Positions 20,740 through 23,877 of a stretch of 64,000 nucleotides of DNA are shown in pieces. Every line of letters starts with the position of its first letter. The first letter of the stretch is position 1. A model generated the notes under the pieces. The model ran no database searches. It saw only the letters and a program-made list of their open reading frames with translations, and was not told where the DNA came from. The position numbers were made by a program, and so were the translations under genes. The stretch comes from Alphaproteobacteria bacterium (lineage in GTDB: Bacteria > Pseudomonadota > Alphaproteobacteria > GCA-2731375): contig CBDCGJ010000007.1 in NCBI GenBank assembly GCA_965216645.1, positions 14,150-78,149 of the forward strand, in the 5' to 3' direction.

Positions 20740-21354
20740 ATGACGAAACGGCTAAGGTCGAAATACAAACTAAACCGCCGACTGGGCGAAAACCTTTGGG
20801 GGCGGCCGAAAAGCCCGGTCAATATCCGCGACTACGGGCCCGGTCAACATGGTCAACGCCGACGCAAGCCATCCGACTACGGTACGCAGCTGCTCGCCAA
20901 GCAGAAACTGCGTGGCTACTACGGCAACATCACGGAAAAGCAGTTCCGTCGGACTTATGATGACGCCGTGCGGCGTAAGGGCGACACGAGTGAGAACTTG
21001 ATTGGTCTCTTGGAAAGCCGACTGGACGCCGTGATTTATCGGGCGAAGTTCGTTCCGACCGTGTTCTCGGCGCGACAATTCGTCAACCATGGACATGTCA
21101 TGGTCAACGGTCGGCGGGTCAACATTCCAAGCTATCGGGTCAAGGAAGGCGATGTCATCGAGGTCCGGGAGCGCTCCCGCCAAATGAACCTGGTATTGGA
21201 AGCGGTCGATTCGCCGGAGCGGGATATTCCGGATTATCTCGACGTTGACCACAACAAGATGCGGGGTGTTTTTCTCCGCATGCCGAGTTTGGCCGACGTG
21301 CCTTACCCGGTCCAGATGGAACCGAACTTGGTGGTTGAGTATTATTCGCGTTGA
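20740..21354 (+). CDS. rpsD: 30S ribosomal protein S4
   Basis: 204 aa with full-length similarity to bacterial S4 ([24 protein letters not shown]..., S4 RNA-binding domain). Confidence 0.95.
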
Positions 21355-21388
21355 TACATCGAAAACTATCAAGTATTGCAATGGAATG

Positions 21389-21417
21389 AGGCCCGCATCG
21401 CGGGCCTTTTCTTTATT
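21389..21417 (+). terminator. Rho-independent terminator of rpsD
   Basis: GGCCCGC-atcg-GCGGGCC stem followed by TTTTCTTTATT, 35 nt after the rpsD stop. Confidence 0.8.
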
Positions 21418-21424
21418 CTCGTAT

Positions 21425-21437
21425 AGCGTTGGCGGTT
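21425..21437. repeat. Left arm of imperfect 13-bp inverted repeat in AT-rich region bordering low-GC islet
   Basis: AGCGTTGGCGGTT matches the reverse complement of 21517..21529 (AACCGCCAGCGTT) at 11 of 13 positions. The arms are about 80 bp apart. Confidence 0.4.
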
Positions 21438-21516
21438 TTAATATTCTAAGCAACTAATATTAGATAATTATTGCAACCTGTAATGTCTGTACCGAATCCC
21501 TCAGGTCCGGTAGTGT

Positions 21517-21529
21517 AACCGCCAGCGTT
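21517..21529. repeat. Right arm of imperfect 13-bp inverted repeat
   Basis: AACCGCCAGCGTT. See the left arm at 21425..21437. Confidence 0.4.
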
Positions 21530-21623
21530 TGAAAGAAATATATTCCGTATTGAAATAGTTTAATATCGAATCGTGTTTTGTAACTATATACGCGTACATC
21601 ATTAGCTGAGATAATTTTCACCC

Positions 21624-22415
21624 ATGTCAGTTCAGGATCAAACACAAGTTTTTGCACCCTGCCGTCGGGTCTTTCGGCGTGCCCGCAGGTTGCTGGACCG
21701 AGACGATCTAAACGATTCGCAACGGCTTCTCAGCGATTTCTCGACATGTTTGGAAAAAAGTTGTCCTCGCCGACAGCAATGTCAGCGATACGTCAGAGGC
21801 CAAGGACTTGCGGTTCCGGAGAACAAATCCGACCTCGTCGATTGGCAGACAATGTCTCGTCGTCCAAATGGTTATGTAGACATCGACGGCCACCGATTGA
21901 CGGAGGGTTTTGAACAACATTTTGCCGCCAGAGACCATTGGGAAAATAGGATTTTGCATCAACAAATAGCGAAAGATGTAGCGTGGAAGTACGAAACGTC
22001 GAGCTTTCGTGCGTTGCTCCGCGCTTGGTACGATTTGGAAAACCCCTCCCTTTCAGATTTCAACTTCGCTGCTCTGAACCGGGAGGATATTGAACCGTGG
22101 CTGCACATTTTTGAGTTTGGCGGCGAAGGGGGGACTAGATTCAAACGTTATGCGCCGCGTATGACGGAGCTGTCAGGCCGGGACGACACAAACACATCAA
22201 TCATGGATTTTCCTATCAGAAAGTTTGCTGAACTCATTGAGCAAGTTCAAGACGACCTTATCGAACAAAGAAAACCGAAATACGGTTATGTTGTTCGTCA
22301 ACTGAATTTCAAAGGCAGTCGACGTGAAGCAGCGATGCGGCGATTAGAATTGCCGTACTTTTCGGGCGATATGGTCGTCGGTTCAATCGTCATGTTGAAG
22401 CCAGAAGCGGCATAG
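21624..22415 (+). CDS. Hypothetical protein (low-GC islet ORF A)
   Basis: 263-aa ORF at about 48% GC inside a roughly 1.8-kb low-GC islet. No recognisable catalytic or DNA-binding motif. Preceded by a 200-bp AT-rich region. Confidence 0.45.
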   Translation: MSVQDQTQVFAPCRRVFRRARRLLDRDDLNDSQRLLSDFSTCLEKSCPRRQQCQRYVRGQGLAVPENKSDLVDWQTMSRRPNGYVDIDGHRLTEGFEQHFAARDHWENRILHQQIAKDVAWKYETSSFRALLRAWYDLENPSLSDFNFAALNREDIEPWLHIFEFGGEGGTRFKRYAPRMTELSGRDDTNTSIMDFPIRKFAELIEQVQDDLIEQRKPKYGYVVRQLNFKGSRREAAMRRLELPYFSGDMVVGSIVMLKPEAA

Positions 22416-23114
22416 CTCTTTTCGAAAATCCATCATTTGTTCATTTATTGAGCTACAGTTTAACCAGACATTTCGTTCGTCATTCGTGTAAGGGAAATAT
22501 CCGACGGAAATCGGAAAGCTATGTGAGTAGCCGTAATACTTAGTGCCAAATTCTCGTGAGATCAAAGCATCCGAGATTAATTGGCCTGTCAACCAGTCAG
22601 GTTGAAATCGTGTAATACCGTGTGCTCTGATCAACCGCGTGAAGTGGGCTGAAAGCCGTGCTCCTCCGTACTCCTGCTTGCGATGAGTTTTCTGTAAATA
22701 TGCTCCGCCAGAGTGAACAATAGATCCAGAAATATTCACCCGCTCGGGAGGAAACCGGAAATTAGGCAAAGGAACGGTTTCTCTATGATGTTTCGGGCTC
22801 CAAAGATACCCTTTCGCGATGTAATCCTTATAGTCGTCGATAATGTCGTGACGCATCGCGACCCAAGCTACGGGACTGCGATTTTGCTCAAGTAGTATCC
22901 AGCCGCTGTTACTTTCGGTGAGATCAAACAGCTCGGGGTCGAGATGACGTGCCAGCGGCGCTTCCGAATTGAATTCCAATGTCAGATCGCGCCAGCCCGA
23001 GAGGCCTGCAAAGCATTGAACGGATATCGCATTTCGATTTAACAACTGGCAGACTGTATCGATATACAGCTGAGTCAAAATATCGACATGATTGTCGTCA
23101 GACTGAAGTTGCAT
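22383..23114 (-). CDS. Hypothetical protein with GNAT-like acyl-CoA N-acyltransferase motif (low-GC islet ORF B)
   Basis: 243 aa. The segment IVHSGGAYLQKTHRKQEYGGARLSAHFTRLIRAHGI fits GNAT motif A (Q-x-x-G-x-A then a helix ending in G). It is in the size range of AHL/N-acyl-amino-acid synthase-like proteins. It is convergent with ORF A and overlaps it by 33 bp. Confidence 0.4.
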   Translation of the reverse strand: MQLQSDDNHVDILTQLYIDTVCQLLNRNAISVQCFAGLSGWRDLTLEFNSEAPLARHLDPELFDLTESNSGWILLEQNRSPVAWVAMRHDIIDDYKDYIAKGYLWSPKHHRETVPLPNFRFPPERVNISGSIVHSGGAYLQKTHRKQEYGGARLSAHFTRLIRAHGITRFQPDWLTGQLISDALISREFGTKYYGYSHSFPISVGYFPYTNDERNVWLNCSSINEQMMDFRKELCRFWLQHDD

Positions 23115-23191
23115 CTCGTACCAACGTGAATTAGCACGTGTGACTACACTTATATCAGTTAAGTTATCACGTAAATGCTATCTCTAGTCTA

Positions 23192-23539
23192 CTATTCTTC
23201 AAAAATCTCCAGCTTGAGGTCCAGCATTTCGCCCATCCAAATTGGATGGTCGCGATGGTCTTCAAGATCGTTACCCGTATTGGGATGCAGGAATATGGTG
23301 CAGCCGCGCCGGTTCAGCATCAACCACGGAACCAGCGTCGAAAACAGTTCCTGCGCAAATAGAATTTGGTAACTCCAACGCGGATGCGGGCCGACATTGC
23401 GTTCGTGCCAGCGGCCCATATCGACATCGAATTTCTCCACAACCTCCTCGCGCAAGGCCATCGCGGCCTCCCGCTTTTCGGCGTCGAAATAGACGTGGGC
23501 GTGGTAGTCCGGGATTCCGGCAACCATAGGTTTGGCCAT
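23192..23539 (-). CDS. DOPA 4,5-dioxygenase-family protein (DODA-like, PF08883-type)
   Basis: 115 aa with the [20 protein letters not shown]-terminus (conserved H-x-H-x-Y-F motif). Its start overlaps the grxD stop. Confidence 0.6.
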   Translation of the reverse strand: MAKPMVAGIPDYHAHVYFDAEKREAAMALREEVVEKFDVDMGRWHERNVGPHPRWSYQILFAQELFSTLVPWLMLNRRGCTIFLHPNTGNDLEDHRDHPIWMGEMLDLKLEIFEE

Positions 23540-23877
23540 TACGCCGCCTTCACCTGTACGCCCTTGTCTTTCAGCATGTCCTGCAATTCGCCGGTCTCGA
23601 ACATCTCGCGCAGGATATCGCAGCCGCCCACGAACTCGCCCTTCACGTAAAGCTGCGGGATGGTCGGCCAATTGCTGAATTCTTTGATGCCTTCGCGCAC
23701 GCTCATGTCTTCCAGCACATTGACGCTGGAAAACGGTACTTCAAGATGGCTCAAGATTTGAACCACGACGGAAGAGAATCCGCATTGCGGAAAGACGGGC
23801 GTGCCCTTCATAAACAGAACGACATCGTCGCCGTCGATTGTGGTTTTGATCTTTTCCTGAACAGGATTGTCACTCAT
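23539..23877 (-). CDS. grxD: Monothiol glutaredoxin (Grx4 family)
   Basis: 112 aa with the CGFS active site (FPQCGFSS) and the conserved [19 protein letters not shown] region. Confidence 0.9.

Follow-up and report, generated by a model that had tools for sequence, protein, structure and literature searches.

A 64,000-nucleotide stretch of an alphaproteobacterial contig (CBDCGJ010000007.1, positions 14,150 to 78,149; hereafter the window) raises the question of what two convergent open reading frames (ORFs) are doing in an AT-rich segment between rpsD and the purC-purS-purQ-purL-bolA-grxD-DODA operon. A preliminary description, made from the DNA letters alone, had taken this segment for a horizontally acquired islet of 1.8 kb and had left both ORFs without a family. 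The lengths, strands, overlap and flanking genes that it gave for the two are correct. ORF A (21624–22415, forward strand) encodes a protein of 263 amino acids with a basic four-cysteine domain at its N-terminus, a linker and a predicted PAS_5-like domain at its C-terminus. ORF B (22383–23114, reverse strand) encodes a protein of 243 amino acids that is predicted to consist of one GNAT-fold domain and to be acyltransferase-like, in a family that has no name. The two genes converge, and their 3' ends overlap by 33 bp (22383–22415, opposite strands); they are the only ORFs of the segment that align to homologues elsewhere. It is very probable, all parts taken jointly, that they make up a resident cassette, that the two proteins adopt these folds, that the genes belong together as a pair, and that the pair occupies a fixed site in allele classes that replace one another.

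Relatives of the two proteins were obtained through synteny and through one exhaustive phmmer search. A scan with DODA as the query, covering one genome per species, gave 59 loci. In L011, the closest relative (rpsD and purL are 91% and 78% identical, respectively), DODA and rpsD enclose homologues of both ORFs, which are convergent and overlap by 27 bp. The same arrangement between DODA and rpsD is seen in the metagenomic contigs L060, L061 and L062, and the ORF A homologues at this site in L011, L061 and L062 are 38–44% identical. Distant members of the GNAT family are found in unrelated contexts (L063, L064, L066, L067, L068, L072 and L074), each with a convergent homologue of the PAS domain of ORF A adjoining it; in L070, the PAS-like neighbour is co-directional with the GNAT gene. 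The preliminary description had proposed asking whether the two ORFs co-occur in other genomes, and the pair does recur: a PAS_5-like neighbour adjoins the GNAT gene in all 12 readable distinct contexts, a count that includes the window and omits the near-identical duplicate contigs L065 and L073. Eleven of the 12 pairs are convergent, and the 3' ends overlap by 12–132 bp in 8 of these 11. A comparison of L067 with L068 gives dN/dS values of 0.15 and 0.22 for the two genes at a dS of about 0.6, indicating purifying selection. Within allele classes, the dN/dS of ORF A is 0.18–0.22, and full-length alignments of both proteins contain few gaps. By these sequence comparisons, the GNAT/PAS_5-like pair is a conserved module across unrelated contexts, nearly always convergent and mostly overlapping at the 3' ends.

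The surroundings of the distant pairs vary. At L068:6001–7422, the pair stands beside a 63-amino-acid ORF and a REC-GerE response regulator gene, a layout that recurs in the unrelated contig L067. At L072:4182–10200 and in L073, the two genes overlap by 123 bp, and genes for a CBS-domain protein, a PaaK-like AMP-binding ligase, an RraA-like protein and a GGDEF protein lie nearby, possibly forming an acyl-activation and signalling neighbourhood. A second small ORF there (149/170 amino acids) looks PAS-like by eye; its match to the ORF A profile is not significant (E 1.3), and it has no PAS match in Pfam. At L074:1–10795, the pair (132-bp overlap) lies amid many small ORFs together with HTH_3 regulators, an N6_N4 DNA methylase and an FtsK/HerA-like ATPase, a context that looks like a prophage or an integrative element.

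Base composition invites another explanation, namely that the segment is a recent foreign islet with two unrelated or decaying ORFs whose pairing and overlap are incidental. The segment from 21355 to 23191 has a GC content of 46.2% compared with a mean of 57.2% (standard deviation 2.7) over all 1.8-kb windows, and no 1.8-kb window of the 64 kb is lower in GC than the islet (a fraction of 0.0008 of the windows has its value or less). The low-GC islet of the preliminary description therefore stands, although its surroundings are at about 57% GC and not at the 60% stated there. GC content is 38% in the spacer past the rpsD terminator and then 43–53% over both ORFs, and GC at third codon positions is 48–51% in ORF A and ORF B compared with 63–70% in bolA, grxD and DODA. 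The site is empty in L001, where an 85-bp rpsD–DODA spacer holds only the equivalent terminator hairpin. In a 7.3-Mb relative, L019, an Abhydrolase_3 esterase gene fills the DODA/rpsD spacer (L019:10413–11435), and this genome carries a GNAT/PAS pair about 2.8 Mb along the same contig (L068). When ORF A and ORF B were each compared with a word-indexed set of 5.8 billion proteins, the query itself was the sole return, so that neither has a close homologue by this search. However, four other lineages carry the pair at the DODA/rpsD site, the pairing holds in every readable context, and the few-gap alignments and low dN/dS values do not fit decaying genes. The site varies between relatives, which supports the preliminary description, but the homologous pairs in L011, L060, L061 and L062 speak against a one-off acquisition. 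The preliminary description had also allowed that conserved homologues of similar GC content at this locus would count against it; this applies in part, the homologues being present but only about 40% identical and low in GC themselves.

The segment also differs from a mobile island. Compositional deviation and presence/absence polymorphism are seen, whereas an integrase or transposase, terminal repeats and a target duplication are not. Neither an integrase (as the preliminary description had said) nor a transposase lies within the islet, no tRNA-gene-like target is present at it, and a repeat search around the segment found no flanking direct or inverted repeats. Because the cassettes of relatives are likewise lower in GC than their own flanks, the low GC would be a property of the cassette lineage rather than a sign of recent arrival. 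Because the pairing is conserved, the incidental-neighbour explanation is largely refuted, and a recent foreign islet is very improbable.

The DODA/rpsD site is occupied by the pair in five lineages of a marine alphaproteobacterial clade (the window, L011, L060, L061 and L062), in at least three allele classes. L011 and L061 share one class, L060 and L062 another, and the window has its own. Between classes, both proteins are about 36–44% identical. The identities of ORF B and ORF A, respectively, are 40% and 41% between the window and L011, 64% and 61% between L011 and L061, 41% and 38% between L061 and L062, and 95% and 97% between L060 and L062. The identity matrices of the two proteins run parallel, and both genes change class together. 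L061 and L062, which come from the same metagenome, are 90%, 93% and 96% identical in DODA, grxD and bolA and 85–90% identical in flank DNA, whereas their cassettes are only about 40% identical in protein and about 45% in DNA. In a sliding-window comparison of these two contigs, the DODA stop codon is where DNA identity drops from 85–90% to about 45%. The L061 cassette is 61–64% identical to that of L011 despite more distant flanks (80–83%). Because the class is discordant with flank similarity and both genes switch together, the simplest reading is cassette replacement through homologous recombination in the conserved flanks, not mobile-element insertion. The islet is very probably a resident, fast-diverging, hypervariable two-gene cassette whose place in this clade, between the convergent DODA and rpsD, is fixed, and selection possibly maintains the divergent classes. 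The earlier idea of a horizontally acquired insert was right in spirit; a mobile-type insertion with a bracketing repeat gives way to a resident cassette exchanged by recombination.

ORF B matches nothing in Pfam (E <= 1), NCBIfam, PHROGs, PADLOC (E <= 1) or the PDB sequences, and a PDB profile search with its family gave nothing significant. A phmmer search of 1.84 billion cluster representatives gave 56 proteins at E <= 1e-3, nearly all of 220–270 amino acids. The consensus of the family alignment, GxVxHxGGLWVxPxxRGxGLxxxLxRLxRA, is a textbook GNAT beta4, motif A and alpha3. Consistently, Acetyltransf_1 (PF00583) is matched weakly by 21 of 51 relatives (E <= 0.1; best 3.3e-6), Acetyltransf_7 (PF13508) is matched by 12 of the 51, and one cluster of the family is labelled 'GNAT superfamily N-acetyltransferase' by JGI. 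An AlphaFold2 (AF2) model built from the family alignment has a predicted local distance difference test (pLDDT) score of 94.8 and a predicted template modelling (pTM) score of 0.91, and it contains the GNAT core beta1-alpha1-alpha2-beta2-beta3-beta4-alpha3-beta5-alpha4-beta6-beta7. Foldseek matches the model to GNATs, in agreement with the GNAT-like character that the preliminary description had suspected. Both the model and the family alignment place ORF B among acyltransferase-like proteins with a GNAT fold, in a small family without a name.

Residues 130–170 of ORF B (SGSIVHSGGAYLQKTHRKQEYGGARLSAHFTRLIRAHG; 22605–22727, reverse strand) form beta4, the motif-A loop and alpha3 of this fold. 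The preliminary description had read a Q-x-x-G-x-A stretch as GNAT motif A. It is indeed the motif-A loop, but with five residues inserted where the family consensus has none: the family has RGxGL at the canonical place, and ORF B retains R145 and G151, interrupted as RKQ-EYGGA-RL. The insertion is common to eight relatives (L011, P0003 to P0006, P0009, P0024 and P0033). Because it lies in the pyrophosphate-binding loop, canonical CoA binding by ORF B is not assured.

Single-protein scans of metagenome and viral contig collections were empty, and an alignment-based scan of contig collections gave one locus, L060; the 51-sequence family alignment was too diverse for pattern scanning. tblastn searches of plasmids (queries ORF B, P0010 and P0017) and of phages (query P0008) gave no close relatives, only plasmid GNATs of 20–26% identity. 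These distant plasmid relatives sit on rhizobial symbiosis plasmids, and no PAS-like neighbour is annotated in either of the two regions inspected. L075 (pNGR234a 227072–229202) and L076 are such very distant relatives (about 24% identity). The NGR234 gene adjoins an ATP-grasp gene ('biotin carboxylase subunit family') and has IS elements on its flanks, and a PAS_5-like partner is not annotated.

ORF A consists of two parts. Residues 1–59 (21624–21800, forward strand) form a helical, basic domain (pI 10.1; 8.8–11.5 across homologues) in which C13, C42, C47 and C53 are conserved in the pattern C-x28-C-x4-7-C-P-x4-C. The four cysteines are invariant in all four complete long forms of alignment A8 (the window, L011, L062 and P0058), and the N-truncated P0059 retains all but the first. 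By eye, an 85-amino-acid piece of L064 shows the four-cysteine pattern too; the ORF A homologue there is apparently split (85 and 190 amino acids) at a run of N (L064:1469–1569), which is an assembly gap, not a true split. AF2 models the domain as four helices with low confidence (pLDDT 50–63). It might bind a metal or an Fe-S cluster, or else nucleic acid.

The PAS-fold domain spans residues ~96–260 of ORF A (21909–22403, forward strand) and carries RRLELPYF as a conserved motif towards its C-terminus. In the AF2 model, which is of medium confidence overall (pLDDT 64.7), the C-terminal ~165 residues take a PAS fold, and the RpfR-BDSF and VqmA-DPO receptors are among the structures nearest to them. 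ORF A itself has no match to PAS_5 (PF07310) at E <= 1. The partners in L072 (25.6 bits) and P0061 (24.7 bits) pass the PAS_5 gathering cutoff of 22 bits, and that in L066 (18.3 bits) falls below it. A comparison of ORF A-type with PAS_5-type partners by hhalign gives a probability of 96.4% (E 1.4e-9). ORF A has about 95 residues ahead of the PAS domain, comprising the basic four-cysteine domain of about 60 residues and a linker, whereas short, PAS-only partners occur in L066, L072 and L074. Pfam finds neither an autoinducer-binding nor a helix-turn-helix (HTH) domain in ORF A, and PADLOC and PHROGs give no match at E <= 1. Its sole Pfam match, a sub-threshold one to DUF6078 (22 bits, cutoff 27), is treated as chance because none of seven homologues has it. 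ORF A is thus modelled as a basic four-cysteine domain fused to a PAS_5-like small-ligand-sensor fold, and this fold fits the suggestion of the preliminary description that ORF A is the partner or receptor of ORF B.

A feature of each protein links the two. The loop insertion is found in all six GNATs whose partner has a four-cysteine domain (the window, L011, P0003, P0004, P0006 and P0009) and is absent from all four without such a partner, three of which (P0007, P0008 and P0010) have PAS-only partners and one (P0017) a partner with a different long N-terminus. This co-occurrence is consistent with physical coupling of the GNAT and its partner. The reading that we favour, to which we give a probability of roughly 40%, is that of a cognate enzyme–sensor pair in which the PAS-type partner gates the GNAT acyltransferase. 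ORF A would bind its cognate ORF B directly and would gate acyl transfer by ORF B, responding to a small ligand, to the redox or metal state of the four-cysteine domain, or to both. Pair-specific contacts would drive the co-diversification of the two proteins. Opposing transcription through the terminator-less convergent 3' overlap would make the expression of ORF A and ORF B mutually antagonistic. Such gating is favoured because it explains the obligate pairing, the co-diversification and the co-occurrence of the insertion with the four-cysteine domain, and because it has a precedent. MopJ of Caulobacter is a single-domain PAS_5 protein that itself lacks an output domain and modulates cell-cycle signalling through protein–protein interactions (PMC4432633).

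Several points weigh against the enzyme–sensor pair. The ORF A model is of medium confidence and is poor in the N-terminal domain. Convergent genes are unexpected for proteins that need a fixed stoichiometry. The motif-A insertion could make the acyl-CoA binding of ORF B non-canonical or the protein non-catalytic. Direct binding between ORF A and ORF B is a postulate of this reading. The co-occurrence of the insertion with the four-cysteine domain may go back to a single ancestral event and be a phylogenetic correlation only. Finally, a loose constraint on sequence might explain some of the divergence between classes, yet not its discordance with the flanks.

The same folds and layout could instead belong to a signal synthase and its cognate receptor, as in LuxI/LuxR systems and much as the preliminary description had supposed: the GNAT would make a small acylated compound as the ligand for the PAS domain of ORF A, the basic four-cysteine domain would be the output, and the allele classes would be 'pherotypes'. 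The AHL synthases RpaI, EsaI and LasI are among the significant Foldseek matches of ORF B, at ranks 7, 38 and 42, and the partner has a PAS ligand-binding fold with receptors for BDSF and DPO among its structural neighbours. The convergent, 3'-overlapping layout is typical of luxI/luxR pairs of gamma-proteobacteria (PMC3044098). Co-diversification of a synthase-like with a receptor-like gene is seen at a fixed locus, and the neighbours elsewhere include the REC-GerE regulator in L067 and L068, the PaaK-like acyl-adenylate ligase in L072 and, in L070, metK, which lies two genes downstream. However, the TM-scores of RpaI, EsaI and LasI against ORF B are 0.41–0.45, in the same range as those of unrelated GNATs, and Autoind_synth (PF00765) is matched neither by ORF B in Pfam nor by any of its 51 relatives (E <= 0.1). 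The likeness to AHL synthases that the preliminary description had pointed out is therefore not specific. Moreover, ORF A lacks an autoinducer-binding or HTH domain by Pfam, and an output domain is missing from the short partners, which consist of the PAS domain only. A synthase and receptor are therefore rather unlikely.

The co-diversifying allele classes and the swapping of the cassette between relatives would also fit a toxin–antitoxin-like or conflict module, in which the GNAT is a growth-arresting acetyltransferase (acting, e.g., on aminoacyl-tRNA) that is neutralised by the PAS-type partner, and the hypervariability reflects addiction or defence dynamics. The module has two genes and a sporadic distribution over many contexts, one of which (L074, with its HTH_3, N6_N4 methylase and FtsK/HerA-like genes) resembles a prophage or mobile element. 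The GNAT toxins TacT, AtaT and KacT have about 160–180 amino acids and are encoded co-directionally downstream of an RHH/DUF1778 antitoxin. In contrast, the partner here is a PAS protein and convergent in all but one of the distinct contexts. PADLOC and PHROGs give no match at E <= 1, the structural match to 7byy is no better than those to about 25 other GNATs, and the tblastn searches of plasmids and phages yielded only the distant plasmid relatives, without an annotated PAS neighbour in the two inspected regions. Such a module is more doubtful still than a synthase and receptor.

Flanks of about 90% identity around cassettes of about 45%, joint switching of both genes and a break at the stop codon are the signature of pherotypes, toxin/immunity pairs and defence modules, and this signature of specificity systems is found here in uncultured marine bacteria. 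The boldest interpretation of it would be that the pair is an unrecognised class of specificity-determining two-gene system in alphaproteobacteria, either an acyl-signal synthase with a PAS receptor or an enzyme/inhibitor pair in strain-level conflict, in which diversifying selection keeps deeply divergent classes that are swapped at a fixed site and the convergent 3' overlap is a regulatory switch. This interpretation is improbable. PAS_5 proteins are common in alphaproteobacteria. The conserved pairing of PAS_5-like proteins such as ORF A with a dedicated GNAT would give the PAS_5 sensor family a concrete partner and a possible biochemical output. If the function were merely regulated housekeeping acetylation, the result would be a useful annotation (a new GNAT subfamily and a four-cysteine/PAS_5 architecture), not a discovery.

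The edges of the cassette are spacers. An intrinsic terminator hairpin of rpsD (21388–21408, forward strand), which has nine pairs (seven of them G-C) followed by a T-run in a terminator scan, marks the left edge of the variable segment. The AT-rich spacer 5' of ORF A (21409–21623, forward strand; ~38% GC) contains a local stem-loop. This is the inverted repeat that the preliminary description had reported as bracketing the islet. It exists, as a 13-bp stem with G-U pairs (arms at ~21425–21437 and 21519–21531; RNA fold −33.4 kcal/mol, z = −3.2). Because both arms sit in the one spacer between rpsD and ORF A, it is a local stem-loop, and a role as bracket is ruled out. Nothing similar is evident in the L011 spacer by eye. 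A sub-threshold Rfam match to the enterobacterial small RNA (sRNA) STnc70 (21247–21416; 30.9 bits against a gathering cutoff of 40, E 8e-4) spans the 3' end of rpsD and its terminator; it may reflect a 3'-UTR-derived sRNA or mere similarity of terminators. On the other side, an AT-rich spacer of 77 bp (23115–23191, reverse strand) separates the DODA stop from the start of ORF B, and the matching spacers in relatives are 29–92 bp long. The terminator scan found no terminator-like site in this spacer, nor between the convergent ORF A and ORF B, and read-through of ORF B from the pur-bolA-grxD-DODA operon is therefore possible. A promoter scan of the region found no sigma-70 consensus promoter.

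The flanks comprise rpsD and a SpoU methylase gene on the left and the purine operon on the right. The DOPA-dioxygenase-family gene DODA (23192–23539, reverse strand; Pfam PF08883, E 1.6e-34) encodes 115 amino acids from an ATG. The mechanically called ORF (23192–23671) has 159 amino acids from a TTG, whereas all relatives give 115 from the internal ATG; the extra 44 upstream codons overlap the 3' end of grxD and are probably not translated. In L056, the DODA homologue is interrupted by a 1.45-kb insertion (L056:10186–11640) that encodes a 432-amino-acid IS256-family transposase (Pfam Transposase_mut, E 4.5e-30). In L011, genes for a 291-amino-acid periplasmic-binding-like protein and a 475-amino-acid histidine kinase, lower in GC, lie between rpsD and the SpoU methylase gene (L011:13332–15561). 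Neither is present in the window, and they form a second variable spot nearby.

Among known systems, the GNAT superfamily (clan Acetyltrans, with PF00583 and PF13508) shares its fold with ORF B, which nevertheless matches no Pfam, NCBIfam or PDB sequence model and is at most 14% identical to any solved GNAT. ORF B exceeds a minimal GNAT by about 80 residues, made up of an N-terminal helix, a 35-residue beta3–beta4 insert and a C-terminal helix, and differs from the GNAT consensus by the 5-residue insertion within the pyrophosphate-binding loop. Compared with the type II toxin–antitoxin systems TacAT, AtaRT and KacAT, the pair is alike in combining a GNAT with a small cognate partner, in its patchy distribution and in its high diversity; it differs in that the partner has a PAS fold and not RHH/DUF1778, the genes are convergent and not in an operon, the GNAT is larger, and PADLOC and PHROGs are unmatched.

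Serratia has convergent luxI/luxR pairs, splI/splR and spsI/spsR, with 3' overlaps of 29 and 54 bp (PMC3044098). ORF A and ORF B lie outside PF00765 and outside PF03472 with GerE, the N-terminal motifs of LuxI are not conserved, and ORF A has no HTH. The likeness is architectural only: an acyltransferase-fold gene and a ligand-binding-fold gene, convergent and overlapping by 33 bp. For PAS_5, MopJ was the sole characterised member found in the literature, and the names PF07310, DUF1457 and DUF6078 gave nothing. ORF A shares with PAS_5 proteins the PAS fold, the profile homology noted above (96.4%) and a C-terminal 'RL(E/I)LP(L/Y)' motif, and like MopJ it has no recognisable enzymatic or HTH output domain. 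It differs in scoring no PAS_5 match itself. It also differs in its extra basic four-cysteine domain, which MopJ-type single-domain proteins lack, and in its linkage to a GNAT gene, a neighbour not described in the passages on MopJ that were consulted (PMC4432633). Both folds are already well known; what is new here is the GNAT subfamily, the four-cysteine/PAS_5-like architecture and the conserved convergent pairing of the two genes.

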